From positions 71,415 through 135,414 of the forward strand of contig JANMYS010000078.1 in the NCBI GenBank assembly GCA_031382385.1: a stretch of DNA of 64,000 nucleotides. The letters run 5' to 3'. Every line of letters begins with the position of its first letter. Within the stretch, counting starts at the first letter, position 1. Below, in pieces: positions 7,947 to 28,349 of the stretch. The notes under the pieces are model-generated. The model searched no databases. It was given only the letters and a program-made list of their open reading frames with translations, and had not been told where the DNA came from. Made by a program: the position numbers and the translations under genes. Source of the DNA: Gemmatimonadota bacterium (lineage in GTDB: Bacteria > Gemmatimonadota > Gemmatimonadetes > Gemmatimonadales > GWC2-71-9).

Positions 7947-9335
7947 TTACTTCGAGAAGAGTTCGCGACAGGCCGTCACCAGCGTCTCCGCTGCGGCCTG
8001 GGTGGGGGCTTCCGCAATAAACCGCACGATAGGCTCTGTGCCCGATGGTCGAACGTGCACCCATCGGTCGGACCACGCCAGTCGCAACCCGTCGCGCCGA
8101 TCCGGGACCGCCTCAGGGAAACGGGCCAGAAGAGCCGAGTACACTGGAGCTAAATCGTTGCCACGAGGTGCTTTGGCTTTCACAATCCGATACCGGGGTT
8201 GGCTTGCGACGAGCTGCGAGACCGACTGCCCCGTAGCGGCGAGGAGGTGCAGGATCAGTGCCACACCAACCGGCGCGTCCCGTCCGATATGCAGGGAGGG
8301 TAGAATCACCCCGCCATTGCCCTCGCCGCCGATGATCGCCCCCTCATCCCGGATGGTCCGGGCCACATTCGCCTCACCCACCGGCGCCCGAACGAACCGG
8401 GCCCCATTCAGCCGTGCCGCATCCTCCACCACCAGACTGGTCGAGAGGTTCGAGACCACGACCGGAGCGTTCGCCTGACCCGCAACGGGCGGAGCTGGAG
8501 CTCCGCCCCTACCAAGCATTGCCCGGACCGCGAGCGCCAGCGTGTAATCCTCGCCGATCGGTTCGCCCAGCTCATTCACCAGCGCCAGCCGGTCCACATC
8601 GGGATCAACCGCCAGGCCGATGTCGGCGCCACTCTCCCGGACAAGACGCGCCAGGTCGCCGATGTTCTCAGGCAGGGGCTCGGGCGGGTGGGGAAACTTC
8701 CCATCCGCCTCCAGGTTGATCCCGTGCACCCGGCAGCCAAGGCGTTCGAGCAACGGCGGAATGGCCAGGCCGCCGGCACCACGCACGCAGTCGAGCGCGA
8801 CGGTAAAACGGCGCCGTCGGATCGCGGCGACGTCGATCATGGGGAGCGCGAGCACCTGATCGAGATGCCGGGCGATCGCATCGCCATCCTCCCGCACGAC
8901 TCCGACGCCCTCCCAGCCGACCCGCGGCGGCCCCGCCTCGGCCAGAGCGCGTACCGTCGTGCCGTCGGCGCCGTCGAGGAAGATCCCGTCGGGACCCACC
9001 AGCTTGAGAGCATTCCATTCGATGGGATTGTGGCTGGCGGTGAGGATCAGCCCGGCACCGGCGTGATGATGCTCCACCGCCAGCTGCACGGTGGGGGTGG
9101 GGACGATCCCGACATCGATGACGTCAACCCCGACCGACATCAGCCCCGCGATCGCCGCGCGGGCGAACATCGGGCCGCTGGTGCGGGCGTCGCGACCGAG
9201 GACTACCAGCGGCGTGCCATTGGAGCGGGCCCACGCACCCAGGGCCGCGGCGTGACGGGCCACCAGCTCCGGGGTGAGATCCTTGCCGACGATCCCGCGC
9301 ATCCCGGACACACTGATCATGAGAGTATCAGACAT
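7947..9335 (-). CDS. glmM: Phosphohexomutase, GlmM-like (phosphoglucosamine mutase candidate)
   Basis: SVSGMRGIVG and TASHNP phosphoserine-loop motif. Lies 9 nt downstream of glmS. Substrate specificity is inferred from context. Confidence 0.8.
   Translation of the reverse strand: MSDTLMISVSGMRGIVGKDLTPELVARHAAALGAWARSNGTPLVVLGRDARTSGPMFARAAIAGLMSVGVDVIDVGIVPTPTVQLAVEHHHAGAGLILTASHNPIEWNALKLVGPDGIFLDGADGTTVRALAEAGPPRVGWEGVGVVREDGDAIARHLDQVLALPMIDVAAIRRRRFTVALDCVRGAGGLAIPPLLERLGCRVHGINLEADGKFPHPPEPLPENIGDLARLVRESGADIGLAVDPDVDRLALVNELGEPIGEDYTLALAVRAMLGRGGAPAPPVAGQANAPVVVSNLSTSLVVEDAARLNGARFVRAPVGEANVARTIRDEGAIIGGEGNGGVILPSLHIGRDAPVGVALILHLLAATGQSVSQLVASQPRYRIVKAKAPRGNDLAPVYSALLARFPEAVPDRRDGLRLAWSDRWVHVRPSGTEPIVRFIAEAPTQAAAETLVTACRELFSK
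8487..8513. repeat. 27-nt GC-rich palindromic element copy inside glmM coding sequence
   Basis: gggcggagctggagctccgcccctacc is the exact reverse complement of 21426-21452. It is translated in frame as GRGGAPAPP. Confidence 0.9.
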
Positions 9336-21425: not shown

Positions 21426-21452
21426 GGTAGGGGCGGAGCTCCAGCTCCGCCC
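21426..21452 (+). terminator. 27-nt palindromic element copy forming a hairpin 4 nt after the fpg stop (no U-tract)
   Basis: ggtagGGGCGGAGCtccaGCTCCGCCC, a 9-bp GC stem. Exact reverse-complement copy at 8487-8513. Confidence 0.6.
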
Positions 21453-23434: not shown

Positions 23435-23926
23435 TCAGTCGCCATCCGCGGAGGTGAGCGGCACGAGCCAGGCGCGGGGCGGCAGACCGGACTCGAGCTC
23501 CATGATCCCGACGGAGGGCGGCAGGTCGAAGCGACGCCGGCCCGCCCCACCGGGATTCATCACCGTCACGGTCAGGTCCACCGTGGTGAGCAGTGGCCGG
23601 TGGGTGTGGCCATAGATGATCACGTCGGCGGCGGGATAGGCCTCGTGCAATTTGTCAGGCGTTGGCGCACCGAGCTGATCGCCGTGGAGCAGCACGAAGT
23701 CGAGGCCCTGGATCTGCTGCTCCACCACCCCCGGCAGGTGGGCGCGCAGGTCCCACCCGTCGCAGTTCCCGTAGACCGCGGTGACCGGGGCGATTGCCTC
23801 GAGTTCGATGAGCAGCTCCTGCGGTCCGATGTCGCCGGCATGCAGAATCAGGTCGACCTCGCGGAAGACCTCGAAGACTTCGGGGCGCAGGAGACCGTGG
23901 GTGTCGGCGATGATGCCTAGGCGCAT
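23435..23926 (-). CDS. YfcE/MJ0936-family metallophosphoesterase
   Basis: MRLGIIADTHG, ILHAGDI, YGNCD, LLHGD, GHTH motifs. Confidence 0.88.
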   Translation of the reverse strand: MRLGIIADTHGLLRPEVFEVFREVDLILHAGDIGPQELLIELEAIAPVTAVYGNCDGWDLRAHLPGVVEQQIQGLDFVLLHGDQLGAPTPDKLHEAYPAADVIIYGHTHRPLLTTVDLTVTVMNPGGAGRRRFDLPPSVGIMELESGLPPRAWLVPLTSADGD

Positions 23927-23945
23927 TGGGGGGCTCGAAGTCGAT

Positions 23946-24015
23946 GGCCGTTGGCCGTTGGCCGCTGGCTACGACGGGCTGCACGCCAAGGGCTAAAGGC
24001 CAACGGCTAACGGCC
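23946..24015. repeat. Inverted GTTGGCC / GGCCAAC heptamer arrays between ubiX and the phosphoesterase gene
   Basis: ggccgttggccgttggccgctggc ... gccaagggctaaaggccaacggctaacggcc. The distal 18 nt pair with one mismatch. Confidence 0.85.
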
Positions 24016-24600
24016 TCATCCCTGCCACCGCGGCGCGATGTCGATCTCCAGCCCCAGCTGATCGATCACCCGCTGGACGATGAAGTCGACCAGCTCGCTG
24101 ACCTGGGTGGGCCGGTGGTAGAAACCGGGCGCGGCGGGAATGACGACGGCACCCGCTTCGGTGACGGCGACGAGATTGCGCAGATGAATGAGCGAGAGCG
24201 GCGTCTCGCGCGGCACCAGAATGAGCTTGCGCCGCTCCTTGAGGACCACATCCGCGGCCCGCTCGACCAGCGAGCGACTGGTCCCGCCGGCGATGGCGGC
24301 GACGGTGCCCATGGAGCAGGGACAGATCACCATGCCGGCGGACTTTGTCGATCCCGATGCGGGCTTGGCGCCGCGGTCGCCATCCGGGAAGAAGGTGATG
24401 CTGGACCAGTCGCCGCCGGTCGCGGCGCAGAGCGCCGCTTCATCCGCAACGCCGGTCTCCTCCTTGAGCAGCCGCCAGCCGTGGCTGGAGACGATCAGCC
24501 ACACCGGGACGCGGCGACGCGCCAGGACGTCCAGCAGACGCACCGCGTACGGCGCCCCGGACGCACCGGTGATCGCCACCACGACAGGCAGTTGGCTCAA
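24016..24600 (-). CDS. ubiX: Flavin prenyltransferase UbiX family (MqnM-like)
   Basis: TTG start. (M)SQLPVVVAITGASGAPYAVRLLDVL, CPCSMGT. Confidence 0.92.
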   Translation of the reverse strand: MSQLPVVVAITGASGAPYAVRLLDVLARRRVPVWLIVSSHGWRLLKEETGVADEAALCAATGGDWSSITFFPDGDRGAKPASGSTKSAGMVICPCSMGTVAAIAGGTSRSLVERAADVVLKERRKLILVPRETPLSLIHLRNLVAVTEAGAVVIPAAPGFYHRPTQVSELVDFIVQRVIDQLGLEIDIAPRWQG

Positions 24601-24746
24601 CGGCCGCGACGGTTGGCGGTCGGAGTCTTGAGCGGGCGCCGCTCCGGTTGCGGCGGCGGGACCTTCTGCTGCAGTGCGCCCTTCTCGGGCGCCGGCTTGC
24701 CCCGGCCCCGCACGGGGATCAGCGTTTCCTTCGGTCGTTTCGACAT
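24597..24746 (-). CDS. Candidate 49-aa basic Pro/Arg/Lys-rich small protein translationally coupled to ubiX
   Basis: Not in the ORF track (below its length cut-off). ATG 24746, MSKRPKETLIPVRGRGKPAPEKGALQQKVPPPQPERRPLKTPTANRRGR. Its TGA overlaps the ubiX TTG as TTGA. Third-position GC is high. No clear Shine-Dalgarno sequence. Confidence 0.4.
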   Translation of the reverse strand: MSKRPKETLIPVRGRGKPAPEKGALQQKVPPPQPERRPLKTPTANRRGR

Positions 24747-24761
24747 GGATGGGTCTTTCGT

Positions 24762-25005
24762 CAGAGTTCAGCCATCAGCCATCAGCCGTCAGCCGTCAGC
24801 CATCAGCCATCAGCCGTCAGCCATCAGCCGTCAGCCGTCAGCCGTCAGCCGTCAGCCGTCAGCCATCAGCCGTCAGCCGTCAGCCGTCAGCCATACGCAT
24901 TCAGCACTCAGCATTCAGCGTTTAGCAATCGCCCAATCGCCTAATCGCCTAATCGCCCAATCGCCCAATCGCCCAATCGCCTGATCGCCCAATCACCCCA
25001 TCGCC
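24762..25005. repeat. Composite microsatellite: about 19 x CAGCC(G/A)T, 5 degenerate CAGCNNT units, then 10 x (C/T)AATCGCC octamers
   Basis: Units counted directly: heptamers 24769-24894 and 24895-24929, octamers 24926-25005. Lies between the ubiA stop (25011) and the small ORF start (24746). Confidence 0.95.
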
Positions 25006-25010
25006 CAACC

Positions 25011-25940
25011 TCACCCCACCAACCGATCCACCAGTGCAAAGCCGAACACCGTCACGCTCATCACGCCGTTCATGGTAAAGAACGCGGCATCGAGCTTCGA
25101 CAGATCGCCCGGCTTCACCAGTTGATGCTCCCATGCGAGGATCAGCGTGGCGCAGCCCACGCCGACAAAGAACCAGAGGCCGAAGCCGGCGCTCAGGCCG
25201 AACACCACCAACGCCGGGATCGTCACGCCATGCAGCAGCTTGGCCAGCAGGATGCTGCGCCGCTGGCCGAGGCGGACGACCGCGCTGCGCAGGCCGGCAT
25301 CGCGATCGAAACCCTCATCGGGCAGGGCGTAGAAGATATCAAAGCCCGCCACCCAGGTTGCCACCGCGAGGGTCACGGCGATGAGCACCCACCACGGCTC
25401 GCTCCACCGCCCGGTCACGGCCAGGTAGCCGCCTACCGGCGCCATGGCGAGCGCGACGCCCAGCCAGAGGTGCGGCCAGAAGGTGAACCGCTTGGCGAAG
25501 CTGTAGCCCATCACCCAGAGCAGGGCGACTGGCGCGAGCAGGAAACAGACCGGGTTGAGCTGACTGGCCGCCAGGAGAAAGAGACTGCCGGCGACGAGAA
25601 CCGACACCCATGCCTGCGTGAGGCTGAGCGCGCCGCGAGGCAGCTCGCGGGCACTGGTGCGCGGATTCCGCGCGTCAAACTCGCGATCGGCGATCCGGTT
25701 GAACCCCATCGCCACCCACCGCGCCGCGGAAAAGGCGAGCACGACGAGCAGGACCATCTGCCAGGTGACCGGATGGTCACCCCAGGCGGCCAGCACCCCG
25801 AGCAGCGCGAAGGGCAGTGCAAAGAGAGTGTGCGGCAGCTTGACGAAATTGATGTAGCGGACCAGCAGCGAGGCGCCAGCGAAGGTCTGGCCCTCGGGCG
25901 CAACGACCGGGAACGGGGAACGGGGAACCGGTGTGCTCAT
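25011..25940 (-). CDS. ubiA: UbiA-family aromatic prenyltransferase (4-hydroxybenzoate polyprenyltransferase / MqnP-like)
   Basis: ATG 25940 overlaps the ubiD stop (ATGA). NRIADREFD Asp-rich motif and multiple TM segments. Confidence 0.9.
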   Translation of the reverse strand: MSTPVPRSPFPVVAPEGQTFAGASLLVRYINFVKLPHTLFALPFALLGVLAAWGDHPVTWQMVLLVVLAFSAARWVAMGFNRIADREFDARNPRTSARELPRGALSLTQAWVSVLVAGSLFLLAASQLNPVCFLLAPVALLWVMGYSFAKRFTFWPHLWLGVALAMAPVGGYLAVTGRWSEPWWVLIAVTLAVATWVAGFDIFYALPDEGFDRDAGLRSAVVRLGQRRSILLAKLLHGVTIPALVVFGLSAGFGLWFFVGVGCATLILAWEHQLVKPGDLSKLDAAFFTMNGVMSVTVFGFALVDRLVG

Positions 25941-25978
25941 CGATTCGTCCCGTTCCCTGTTCCCGTTTCCCCGTTCCC
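25909..25978. repeat. Inverted GGGAACG / CGTTCCC arrays forming a hairpin whose loop holds the ubiD-stop/ubiA-start ATGA overlap
   Basis: gggaacggggaacggggaac (25909-25928), loop with tcat at 25937-25940, gtcccgttccctgttcccgtttccccgttccc (25947-25978). Confidence 0.9.
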
Positions 25979-27454
25979 GAGTCGAATCCCCAGCTTCGGC
26001 CACAGCGCATCAACCCGGCGCTTCGTCGCCTCGTCCATGGTGATCAGCGGCGGCCACTCGCGGTGGAAACCCTCTTCTTTCCACTTCCTCGTGCCGTCGA
26101 TCCCCATCTTGCTGCCGTAGGTGAACTGCTGGCTGGCATGATCCAGCACATCGGCCGGTCCCATCGTGAAGCGCACATCCCGCTGCGGGTCGATGTTGTT
26201 CAACGCGATCCACCAGGCCTCGTCCGGATCGCGGACGTCCACCTCCTTGTCGACCACCACGATCACCTTGGCCAGCGACATGAGGCCCTGGCCCCAGAGC
26301 GCGTTCATCACCTTGGACGCCTGGCCGGGGTACTGCTTGTCGATCGAGACGAAGATCAGGTTGTGGAAGATCCCGCAGGCCGGCATGTGGTAGTCCACGA
26401 TCTCCGGCACGGTGAGCTTGAGCAGCGGCAGGAAGACCCGCTCCGTCGCATGCCCGAGGTAGTAGTCCTCCATCGGCGGACGCCCGACCAGCGTCGCGGC
26501 ATAGACCGGCCGCTTCCGCATGGTGACCGCAGTAACGTGGACCAGCGGGTAGTAGTCGGCCAGCGAATAGAACCCGGTGTGATCGCCGAATGGCCCCTCG
26601 AGCACCAGTGGCTCTGCCGGGTCGATGTAGCCCTCGATCACGAACTCGGCTTCGGCCGGCACATCGAGGGCGCACGTCACCGCTTTCGCCAGCTCGACCG
26701 GGGACTTCCGCAGGAAGCCCGCAAAGATGAACTCATCGATCGTCGGGGGCAGCGGGGCCGACCCGGAATACAGACTCGCGGGATCGGCCCCGATCGCGAT
26801 GACGACCGGCATTCGTTCACCCCTCGCCGCCATCTCGCGCCAGTGCGCGGCCCCGACCTTGTGCCGCTGCCAGTGCATCGCCAGCGTGTTCTTCGACAGC
26901 ACCTGGATCCGGTACATGCCGACGTTGCGGATGCCGCGCGAGGGATCCTCGGTGATGACCATCGGCAGCGTGATGTAGCGCCCGCCATCCTGCGGCCAGG
27001 TGGTGAGGAAGGGCAGCCGATCGAGGTCGATCTCCCCGCCCTGCCACACGATCTCCTGACAGGACGGCCGACCACTCCTGGTGCGCGGCGGGAACTTGGC
27101 CACCTCGGCGAGCTTGGGCAGCATCGAGAGCTTGCCGAAGAGCCCGTCGGGCACCTTCAGGTTCAGCAGCTCGCTGATCCGCCCACCGATGGAATCGAGC
27201 TCCTCGACGCCCAGCGCCAGGCACATCCGCCGCATCGAACCATACAGGTTGATGGCGACAGGATACTCGCTGATGGCCCCGCTGGGCAGCACCGGCTGCT
27301 CGAACAGCAGCGCCGGCCCGCCGCCCGGACTCTTCATGCAGCGGTCGGCGATCTCCGCGATCTCGAGATGGGTACGCACCGGTTCCCTGATCCGGACCAG
27401 TTCGCCCGCTTTCTCGATCGCGGCGATGAACTCCTGCAGGCTGTCGAGGCTCAC
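25937..27454 (-). CDS. ubiD: UbiD-family (prFMN-dependent) decarboxylase (MqnL-like)
   Basis: GTG 27454 gives (M)SLDSLQEFIAAIEKAGELVRI.... Family-typical length of about 505 aa. The upstream part of the track ORF is repeat-derived. Confidence 0.92.
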   Translation of the reverse strand: MSLDSLQEFIAAIEKAGELVRIREPVRTHLEIAEIADRCMKSPGGGPALLFEQPVLPSGAISEYPVAINLYGSMRRMCLALGVEELDSIGGRISELLNLKVPDGLFGKLSMLPKLAEVAKFPPRTRSGRPSCQEIVWQGGEIDLDRLPFLTTWPQDGGRYITLPMVITEDPSRGIRNVGMYRIQVLSKNTLAMHWQRHKVGAAHWREMAARGERMPVVIAIGADPASLYSGSAPLPPTIDEFIFAGFLRKSPVELAKAVTCALDVPAEAEFVIEGYIDPAEPLVLEGPFGDHTGFYSLADYYPLVHVTAVTMRKRPVYAATLVGRPPMEDYYLGHATERVFLPLLKLTVPEIVDYHMPACGIFHNLIFVSIDKQYPGQASKVMNALWGQGLMSLAKVIVVVDKEVDVRDPDEAWWIALNNIDPQRDVRFTMGPADVLDHASQQFTYGSKMGIDGTRKWKEEGFHREWPPLITMDEATKRRVDALWPKLGIRLGNGETGTGNGTNR

Positions 27455-27462
27455 GGAAACTC

Positions 27463-27601
27463 GGGGAACGGGGAACGGGGAACGGGGAACGGGCTGAGGA
27501 CCGAACGCGCGGACTCGGCCACGCCCACGCCGATGCCCGGCAGCACGAAACAATACGCCAGAGTGCGCTTCCTGTTCCCCGTTCCCCGTTCCCTGTTCCC
27601 C
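27463..27601. repeat. Inverted (GGGGAAC)4 / (GTTCCCC)4 arrays, 77-nt loop, between ubiE and ubiD
   Basis: ggggaacggggaacggggaacggggaacggg (27463-27493) and cctgttccccgttccccgttccctgttcccc (27571-27601). Confidence 0.95.
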
Positions 27602-27620: not shown

Positions 27621-28349
27621 TCACCGCCGGGTCCCGACGTGGATCGCGCAGATGCCGCCGAGCAGCAACTGCCAGCGCACCGCGGAGAACCCCTGCACTG
27701 CCATCCGTGCGGCGAGTTGGGGCGGTTCCGGGAAGCTCAGCACCGACGCCGGAAGGTAGGTATACGCGTCGGAGTGCCGGGAAACCAGTCGTCCGATGGA
27801 CGGGAGGACGTGGCGAAAGTAGAGCAGGTAGGCCCCACGCATCGGCTGCCAGGAAGGAGTGGTGAATTCCAGAATCACGAATCGCCCCCCCGGCTTGATG
27901 ACTCGGGCCGCCTCCGCCAGGCCGCGGTCGAGATCGGCCAGGTTCCGCACCCCGAAGCCGACGGTCGCCCCGTCGAATGAGGCATCAGGGAATGGCAGGT
28001 CGAGGGCATCGGCGTTCACCGCGCGGACCCGGGCGGACTTGTTCTGACCCAGCTCGAGCATGGGAAGGACGAAATCAGCACCGATGACTTGCCCGGTAAA
28101 ACCGGGCCGGTCGCCCAATGTGGCCGCGAGATCCAGGGTGCCGGAGCAGAGGTCGAGGTACCGGCCAGCGGGGGCGCGCTCCCAGTCGAGCTCCGCGACG
28201 GCCTGCCGGCGCCAGCGGCGGTCCATATTGAGACTGAGGACGTGATTGAGGAGGTCGTACCGGGGGGCGATCTGGGTGAACATGGCCCGGACGTAGGACC
28301 GCTTCTCTGTGCCGCCCGAAAGCGGTAACTTCCTTTCCGTGACCAACAT
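27621..28349 (-). CDS. ubiE: Demethylmenaquinone/ubiquinone C-methyltransferase
   Basis: VRAMFTQIAPRYDLLNHVLS, DLCSGTLD SAM motif, FGVRN. Confidence 0.92.
   Translation of the reverse strand: MLVTERKLPLSGGTEKRSYVRAMFTQIAPRYDLLNHVLSLNMDRRWRRQAVAELDWERAPAGRYLDLCSGTLDLAATLGDRPGFTGQVIGADFVLPMLELGQNKSARVRAVNADALDLPFPDASFDGATVGFGVRNLADLDRGLAEAARVIKPGGRFVILEFTTPSWQPMRGAYLLYFRHVLPSIGRLVSRHSDAYTYLPASVLSFPEPPQLAARMAVQGFSAVRWQLLLGGICAIHVGTRR

Follow-up and report, generated by a model that had tools for sequence, protein, structure and literature searches.

A composite tandem repeat occupies positions 24762–25005 of the window analysed here, a stretch of 64,000 nucleotides from contig JANMYS010000078.1 of a Gemmatimonadota draft genome, where it separates a gene for a UbiA-family prenyltransferase (ubiA) from a small open reading frame (ORF) and ubiX in a quinone operon. 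We found that this array belongs to a class of polar, G-rich repeats with units of 7–8 nt that is spread genome-wide and order-wide in Gemmatimonadales, that it follows the polarity and the order of unit families of that class, and that its length is labile between close lineages. In our judgement, it is likely to be an exceptionally expanded member of this class, without a function specific to its locus.

Architecture of the array

The repeat is composed of three parts, as had been described in a first-pass annotation of the window made from its letters alone:

24762..24894, minus strand: heptamer array, on the sense strand 18 units of ACGGCTG/ATGGCTG and one degenerate unit (GGCTGAC family)
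24895..24925, minus strand: short array of the AATGCTG/AACGCTG family, about 4–5 degenerate units, with the junction TTGCTAAACGCTGAATGCTGA...AATGCGT
24926..25005, minus strand: octamer array, on the sense strand ten units of GGCGATTG/GGCGATTA, the commonest octamer family of the genome, starting no more than 5 nt past the ubiA stop codon

On the plus strand, a degenerate CAGAGTT unit at 24762 stands just before 18 contiguous, exact-length CAGCC(G/A)T heptamers (24769–24894), whose G/A position reads, unit by unit, A A G G A A G A G G G G G A G G G A. The five degenerate heptamers at 24895–24925 read ACGCATT, CAGCACT, CAGCATT, CAGCGTT and TAGCAAT, and the ten (C/T)AATCGCC octamers at 24926–25005 comprise six of CAATCGCC, two of TAATCGCC, and the variants TGATCGCC, CAATCACC and CCATCGCC. 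Tandem Repeats Finder (TRF) resolved the array into a period-7 repeat at 24768–24892 (17.9 copies, 94% matches, score 208), another at 24897–24927 (4.4 copies, score 41), and a period-8 repeat at 24926–25008 (10.4 copies, score 124). When the window was shuffled 30 times with its dinucleotides preserved, the top TRF score, whatever the period, was 66, which places the array far above chance.

In the sense direction, the ubiA stop codon (TGA, minus strand, 25011–25013, 5 nt from the last full octamer) is followed by GGCGATTG x10, the AATGCTG-type stretch, (ACGGCTG/ATGGCTG) x18, and 22 nt that include one degenerate unit, after which comes the ATG of the small ORF; the distance from the array to this start codon is 15–22 nt. 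Since TGA or TAG is present in all three sense-strand frames, the array is untranslatable. Its units are 7–8 nt long, contiguous and without spacers, unlike CRISPR arrays, whose 24–48-nt repeats alternate with unique spacers.

Two details of the first-pass annotation have to be revised. The middle units, which it took for decaying copies of the CAGCCGT array, form a family of their own (sense-strand unit AATGCTG), whose junction recurs at the orthologous locus in sister lineages as well as in a paralogous copy. The alternation of G and A, in which it saw a readable history of mutation and duplication, was not supported as such: the sole variable position across the 18 heptamers, ACGG versus ATGG in sense orientation, corresponds to a CpG at which C has changed to T, and no higher-order period was seen in the order of the variants.

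A genome-wide class of heptamer and octamer arrays

The genome is a draft of 4.37 Mb (67.6% G+C, 175 contigs, 95% complete) from a member of the Gemmatimonadales, whose best UbiA relatives are 80% identical in protein. Genes were called with an iterated hexamer model that agreed with Pfam matches, which gave 3,934 genes, 90.3% coding and 9.7% non-coding DNA. At a TRF score of at least 40, the whole genome holds 604 period-7 and 173 period-8 rows, with period 7 dominating, and these fall into 59 canonical heptamer and 28 octamer families. The rows are concentrated in few families, and the two commonest (ACGGCTG and AATCGCCC) are the very units of the array under study; ACGGCTG, AACGGGG, ACCTGCC, AACGGCC and AATCGCCC are the top families of the genome. 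The GGCTGAC family, to which the long heptamer part belongs, is the commonest heptamer family, with 119 TRF rows.

Lowering the score threshold to 30 gave 991 period-7 and 406 period-8 rows (1,397 together), and most of these are intergenic: 922 of them (66%) lie for the greater part between genes, against 9.7% of the genome being non-coding. Rows of period 7 and 8 cover 8.7% of all non-coding bases, and 33 TRF rows were found in the real window as compared to 6 in shuffled windows. When the arrays were counted as blocks, 1,237 blocks of 7/8-mers were found genome-wide, with a median length of 28 nt and a 99th percentile of 153 nt. The studied block is the fourth longest, and with 18 + 5 + 10 units (33 units long) it is an outlier against a genome-wide copy-number mode of 3–4 for period 7. 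The array is thus not a peculiarity of its operon: it is one block of 1,237 and obeys genome-wide rules of polarity and order.

Several contigs of the assembly begin or end in long heptamer arrays (C34:27-269, C114:1-173 and C13:1-142), so that part of the fragmentation of the draft is due to them. No report of such arrays in Gemmatimonadota was found in the literature.

Polarity and order of the unit families

The arrays are strongly oriented with respect to the genes around them. The median distance from the upstream stop codon to the start of the array is 8 nt for arrays with a G-rich sense strand and 66 nt for those with a C-rich one (p = 1.6e-17); 56% of the sense-G-rich arrays begin within 10 nt past the stop codon, and the sense-C-rich arrays lie toward the next start codon. 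In convergent and divergent spacers an equivalent rule holds, by which the plus strand of the arrays is G-rich at the left end and C-rich at the right end. Inverted pairs of the same family follow the same polarity, the ratio of G-first to C-first pairs being 50:4 in spacers, 72:6 in the whole genome and, for the loci of the 80 relatives, 16:0. Among the few C-first pairs of the genome, half have loops of 2–15 nt, and the loops of G-first pairs cluster at 45–65 nt. A rare C-first hairpin of this short-loop kind was also noticed in the ubiX–phosphodiesterase spacer of sister lineages (L086 and L090), where AGCCATC x3 and CTGATGG-type units are separated by a loop of a few nucleotides.

The unit families also succeed one another in a set order along the G-rich strand. 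Octamers precede GGCTGAC-type heptamers in 9:0 and AATGCTG-type heptamers in 5:0 cases, and GGCAGGT precedes GGCTGAC in 13:0. The array under study behaves as these rules predict: its sense strand is G-rich, it begins no more than 5 nt after the ubiA stop, and its octamers come before its GGCTGAC-type heptamers.

Three explanations of these patterns were considered and set aside. The polarity could have been an artefact of gene calling, with ORFs swallowing the stop-free C-rich arrays; this was rejected, as the polarity at gene ends is no different for arrays that lie within called genes. Avoidance of Rho loading, by which long operon arrays would be sense-G-rich, was not supported in co-directional spacers (240 sense-G-rich versus 235 sense-C-rich arrays; 16 versus 8 among blocks of at least 100 nt, p = 0.15). 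A telomere-like addition, by which the distal arrays would be the younger ones, was likewise not supported, with matches of 89.6% in proximal and 90.0% in distal arrays (p = 0.58).

Variation among relatives and a paralogous copy

We then compared the locus with those of 80 relatives, 74 of which include ubiX. The genes ubiA and ubiX lie within 600 nt of each other in 68 of the 74; the gap is shorter than 60 nt in 19 relatives and 60–600 nt in 49, and overall it ranges from about 0 to 500 nt. Arrays of 7/8-mers with unrelated units were found in 28 of the 49 longer gaps, and their arms usually have about four copies (3.6–4.9) and never more than nine. A spacer that varies from 0 to 500 nt and is filled with unrelated units across the 80 relatives argues against a conserved regulatory element at this junction.

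The sister lineages, which are 94.4% identical to the window over ubiD–ubiA and 87–92% identical downstream, keep the three-part layout and the junction TTGCTAAACGCTGAATGCTGA, with 3–6 octamers and four terminal heptamers of the related GGCCAAC type. Their gap between ubiA and the small ORF is 187 and 210 nt, versus 264 nt here, and it contains about 70 nt of non-repeat sequence that is missing from the window; the other spacers of the operon are wholly turned over between the window and these lineages. The copy-number change that the first-pass annotation had raised as a possibility is therefore real on an evolutionary time scale, with 18 versus 4 terminal heptamers and 10 versus 3–6 octamers at 94% flank identity. 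The comparison of these loci shows a composite of GGCGATTG octamers, AATGCTG units and GGCTGAC-type heptamers that existed already in the ancestor shared with the sister lineages and has since grown to 10 + ~5 + 18 units.

An independent assembly of the same strain (L088), with 99.96% identity over 2.7 kb, has a contig break within the array; independent confirmation thus extends to the last 4–5 units and the flank only, and a single draft assembly underlies the exact copy number. L081 and L082/L083, assemblies of one sister strain, differ by a single mismatch in 6.1 kb, yet carry 7 versus 5 GGCGATTG units in the ubiE–ubiD spacer. L081 also has a suspicious frame-shifting deletion of 16 nt in the coding end of ubiE (locus ~130-230), 77 nt from the octamer difference; the octamer gain and this deletion cancel in length, and hence the assembly of L081 or of L082/L083 may be wrong. 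Two metagenome scans gave no match for the array junction specific to the window and, for a conserved 20-mer, recovered only the known sister type, and an exact look-up of the UbiX protein for same-strain length alleles gave no match.

A paralogous composite is present in the same genome at C161:35817-36000, after an aldehyde dehydrogenase gene, with about 12 octamers and 5 heptamers. The junctions TTGCTAAACGCTGAATGCTG and AATGCGTATGGCTG each occur exactly twice in the genome, in the studied array and in this copy on C161, and looser versions of the composite are found on C146 and C163. In another species of the genus, the octamer family is present at the C161 locus as well. The same-genus genomes drawn for the C161 orthologue are only 70–78% identical in protein and are thus too distant to date an exchange between the loci.

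The menaquinone operon and its small ORF

The genes and further repeats around the array are as follows:

27621..28349, minus strand: UbiE/MenG methyltransferase, first gene of the operon (PF01209, E = 8e-59; TIGR01934 over cut-off)
27462..27601, ubiE–ubiD spacer: inverted heptamer pair (CGGGGAA) x4.6 ... (GTTCCCC) x4
25937..27454, minus strand: UbiD-family menaquinone biosynthesis decarboxylase of the SCO4490 type (PF01977, PF20695, PF20696; TIGR03701, 612 bits against an equivalog cut-off of 495.9)
25909..25979: inverted heptamer pair of the GGGAACG / CCCGTTC type, straddling the ubiD stop and the ubiA start
25011..25940, minus strand: UbiA-family polyprenyltransferase, MqnP-like (PF01040, E = 1.8e-52; TIGR01475, 269 bits against a cut-off of 180.8)
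24597..24746, minus strand: small ORF of 49 aa (MSKRPKETLIPVRGRGKP...TANRRGR), its stop overlapping the ubiX start codon (TTGA)
24016..24600, minus strand: UbiX-family flavin prenyltransferase (PF02441, E = 1.8e-40; NF004685 and TIGR00421 over cut-offs)
23945..24015: heptamer arrays TGGCCGT x3.6 and GGCTAAC x3.4, filling the ubiX–phosphodiesterase spacer
23435..23926, minus strand: YfcE-family phosphodiesterase, downstream of ubiX (PF12850, E = 6e-33; TIGR00040)

The product of the operon is menaquinone, not ubiquinone. All of its genes lie on the minus strand and the array stands between ubiA and the 49-aa ORF/ubiX, so that the placement within a co-oriented quinone operon in the first-pass annotation holds. 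Its further statement that the genes are otherwise tightly packed is only partly right: the ubiD stop and ubiA start, as well as the small ORF and ubiX, overlap by 4 nt, but three other junctions carry heptamer arrays of their own. In the pair at 25909–25979, one arm codes for the last residues of UbiD and the other for the first residues of UbiA, and the sister lineage L081 is arranged alike.

The 49-aa small ORF is a real gene, judging by its conservation. An identical protein is encoded in at least four lineages with 18 variable nucleotide sites, all of them synonymous, and the exact 49-aa ORF is also encoded in many other assemblies. At least 32 of the 80 relatives retain a C-terminus of the form KHPxRSPTPNRRGR and a stop that overlaps the ubiX start, and a small protein of 45–60 aa lies between the MqnP-like prenyltransferase and UbiX across many Gemmatimonadales (L004, L006, L030, L050, L051, L076 and others). 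In several relatives the start of the small ORF is an ATGA that overlaps the ubiA stop, and the reading frame crosses both arms of an inverted heptamer pair. The 49-aa protein has no Pfam or NCBIfam match. No Shine-Dalgarno-like motif was found before its start codon, which is unremarkable as only 34% of the genes of this genome have one. Given the overlap of the ubiX TTG with the small-ORF stop, ubiX probably depends on translation of the small ORF.

RNA structure and regulatory signals

For the sense RNA of the spacer, the predicted folding energy is -121.5 kcal/mol (z = -8.2 versus shuffles), and the antisense RNA is predicted to be unstructured (z = +1.2). We rejected this fold as evidence of selection: arrays with permuted units fold equally well (12 heptamers, mean of -54 for the permuted versus -51.6 kcal/mol), and the octamer is no better than 79% of its permutations. 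The strong predicted fold is therefore generic to G-rich tandem arrays. A long-range helix joining the ubiA stop to the small-ORF start appears in the predicted fold of the window and is absent from L081 and L086; it was rejected as well.

Searches for regulatory signals were negative. A consensus scan found no promoter-like site in or beside the array, sigma-70 scans being weak evidence in this phylum, and neither a terminator-like site nor a U-tract was found on either strand in 24700–25050, so that no intrinsic terminator is recognisable there. Rfam gave no match for the array, and its microRNA hits at another hairpin were sub-threshold noise. No G3+N1-7 x4 quadruplex motif is present in the array's sense sequence; one appears only if a 13-nt loop is allowed, and the heptamers carry GG only. 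The position of the array, after the stop codon of one housekeeping quinone gene, before the start codon that follows, and with no promoter-like site found, is also not that of a phase-variable contingency locus, where the repeat is situated within a reading frame or amid promoter elements, typically of surface or host-interaction genes, and switches a gene on or off.

Origin of the array and alternative explanations

Arrays of 7–8-nt units probably arise and change in length by replication slippage or unequal exchange, after which selection or a strand-symmetric mechanism would filter them, such that G-rich sense strands are retained after stop codons and C-rich sense strands before start codons. 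The present array would most likely be transcribed within the menaquinone operon as an untranslatable, strongly self-paired spacer that separates ubiA from the small ORF/ubiX. A regulatory function specific to the locus is probably absent, as the comparative data disfavour such a role, and any effect would at most be a generic one on the stability of RNA 3' ends or on the uncoupling of translation.

Several observations weigh against this reading. The array has no complementary C-rich arm in the ubiA–small ORF spacer, and such an arm is common in the class. It is four to five times longer than the class mode of about four units, by which something locus-specific may have favoured its expansion. 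Its position 15–22 nt before a start codon is a minority one, as 14% of the sense-G-rich arrays lie within 30 nt of a start, and its units are without the set of four G3 tracts at close spacing by which the quadruplex-forming repeats in the literature are defined. Simple slippage in situ also leaves unexplained the fixed order of families and the junctions shared by unlinked loci.

Among the alternatives, the array could be a tuning knob, in which the number of units alters the structure of the ubiA–small ORF/ubiX mRNA and sets the ratio of prenyltransferase to UbiX, thereby providing heritable and reversible variation in expression. The strand-specific predicted fold, the short distance to a small-ORF start without a Shine-Dalgarno-like motif, the probable dependence of ubiX on small-ORF translation, and the strong copy-number differences between close lineages are all in line with this idea. 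Nevertheless, we consider it unlikely, because permuted arrays of the same letters fold equally well, the helix between the ubiA stop and the small-ORF start is absent from sister lineages, the missing Shine-Dalgarno motif is common in this genome, and the junction tolerates spacers of 0–500 nt across relatives; moreover, the target is a housekeeping quinone pathway and the same kind of array is found at hundreds of unrelated junctions. Very unlikely, in our view, is a role as a transcript boundary, with the array being a terminator, a pause site or a protector of RNA 3' ends that splits the ubiE–ubiD–ubiA message from small ORF–ubiX, as repetitive extragenic palindromic (REP) sequences, bacterial interspersed mosaic elements (BIME) or the Xanthomonas repeats may do. 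Arrays of this polarity start at stop codons genome-wide, their sense RNA is predicted here to be strongly structured, and Xanthomonas transcripts start or stop more often at quadruplex-forming than at control repeats (Rehm 2015, PMC4692102). Against it stand the lack of a U-tract or terminator-like consensus, of a downstream promoter-like site for restart (with the above caution on sigma-70 scans), and of a canonical G-quadruplex motif. Co-directional spacers also show no bias between sense and antisense, and arrays at four junctions of one operon would fragment the operon completely.

The composite might also have spread as a cassette, with the ordered series of octamer, AATGCTG and GGCTGAC copied between loci by non-allelic gene conversion or a templated directional process and expanded later. 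The two junctions that occur only here and on C161, the looser composites on C146 and C163, and the strongly non-random order of families (60:14 overall, with several pairs at 13:0, 9:0 and 7:0) point in this direction. We regard it as improbable all the same, since the exact junctions are common to two loci only, and in other members of the genus or lineage the octamer family was already there at both loci, by which shared ancestry and convergence are possible. In addition, no transposase is associated with the arrays (the one gene resembling a REP-associated tyrosine transposase, RAYT, has a different palindrome on its flanks), homogeneity is no higher in distal than in proximal arrays, and the family order was partly chosen after seeing the data, which inflates its overall p-value. 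A broader version of the idea, which we hold to be speculative and improbable too, is that a directional templated or cassette-copying process lays down all such arrays in a fixed family order outward from gene ends (octamers, AATGCTG, GGCTGAC), with the G-rich strand running 5'->3' away from the nearest gene; the studied composite and its C161 twin would then be two products of it, and in sister lineages it would have placed an inverted pair, both arms included, within the frame of the small ORF that lies between ubiA and ubiX. Finally, the repeat may exist with a unit number inflated or collapsed by the assembler. Several contigs begin or end in such arrays, the same-strain assembly breaks inside this one, and a sister strain has a pair of assemblies that, identical elsewhere, show a difference of two octamers and the suspicious deletion close to them. 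An error in unit number is extremely unlikely, as the contig crosses the array and its flank is unique on either side, the G/A pattern is irregular and without a sign of assembler looping, L088 has identical last units and an identical flank, and the same composite recurs in the sister lineages and in the paralog. An expanded member of a genome-wide class thus remains the reading that we prefer.

Significance and comparison with known repeat systems

By itself, a single array is of little weight, being a very long example of a class that has been described but is yet unexplained. The class nevertheless has practical consequences: such arrays break assemblies, and as their C-rich strand is free of stop codons, long false ORFs arise on it (e.g., a 352-aa ORF on the plus strand at 23926–24984) which can mislead annotation. 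A housekeeping operon whose junctions vary from 4-nt overlaps to a repeat of 264 nt between close relatives also offers a clean natural experiment on whether operon expression responds to such arrays at all.

The kind of array described here is already known, as published work on Xanthomonas and Nostoc has covered polarity, inverted pairs and length variation. Rehm et al. (2015, PLoS One, PMC4692102) reported G-rich heptamer repeats (GGGAATC in Xanthomonas, GGGGA(C/T)T in Nostoc PCC 7120) in hundreds of copies and enriched in non-coding DNA, with the G-rich strand being the coding one up to 50 bp past stop codons and the non-coding one immediately upstream of genes. The same authors described inverted pairs, a preference for about four units, and variation in length and sequence at the same spacers between related genomes; most of the repeats were transcribed, no link to gene function was seen, and no function was identified (PMC4692102). 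The Gemmatimonadales arrays resemble them in their tandem 7-nt units, non-coding enrichment, polarity, inverted pairs, preference for about four units, variation at a given spacer between related genomes, and lack of a link to gene function. They differ in having many unit families rather than one, in including octamers, in their fixed family order, in that most units lack the four close G3 tracts needed for a canonical quadruplex, and in their host phylum; the studied array differs further with its 33 units and lack of a complementary arm.

Heterocystous cyanobacteria carry short tandemly repeated repetitive (STRR) heptamers, which are dispersed tandem arrays of several families per genome with units such as CCCCAGT, TTGGTCA and CAACAGT. 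Several dispersed heptamer families are a feature in common, but the units and the host phylum here are different and the genome is G+C-rich (67.6%), and the array was not classed as STRR. Long simple sequence repeats (LSSR) with units of 5–11 nt were surveyed by Mrazek, Guo and Shah (2007), who, as summarised in PMC4679880, found heptamers to be the commonest and intergenic and proposed polymerase slippage. The present arrays are alike in being intergenic heptamers; that survey did not extend to Gemmatimonadota and, in the form summarised there (PMC4679880), gave no polarity or family order. In marine Beggiatoaceae, TAACTGA direct repeats are found in the intergenic DNA of many gene junctions, contain stop codons, and are suspected of a post-transcriptional role (MacGregor, 2015; PMC4679880). 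Those repeats have one fixed unit in 2–6 copies, mostly a few nucleotides upstream of start codons, whereas the units here are diverse and the G-rich arrays lie at stop codons.

The REP/BIME sequences of enterobacteria are intergenic, number hundreds of copies, and often lie within operons near stop codons, where their RNA structures can stabilise the upstream message. REP sequences are imperfect palindromes of 20–40 nt and are associated with RAYT transposases. The studied array consists of direct tandem 7-mers, not of a palindrome, and is thus no REP/RAYT element. The genome does hold a separate REP-like palindrome of 22 nt, GGGCGGAGCTGGAGCTCCGCCC, in 44 copies, including those at 8487–8508 and 21431–21452 of the window, which is distinct from the heptamer arrays. 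Three copies of GGGCGGAGCTGGAGCTCCGCCC stand on each side of a Y1-transposase match (PF01797) at C54:5989-6830, a classical REP–RAYT arrangement, and this gene is not flanked by heptamers.

The traits that set the array apart from the published class, namely the many families, the octamers, the fixed order, the lack of a canonical quadruplex and the new phylum, are traits of the whole genome and not of this array. With these data, the polarity rule is now seen in Gemmatimonadota besides Xanthomonas and cyanobacteria, and that it holds in 80 relatives with unrelated units points to a cause that is independent of the unit sequence.

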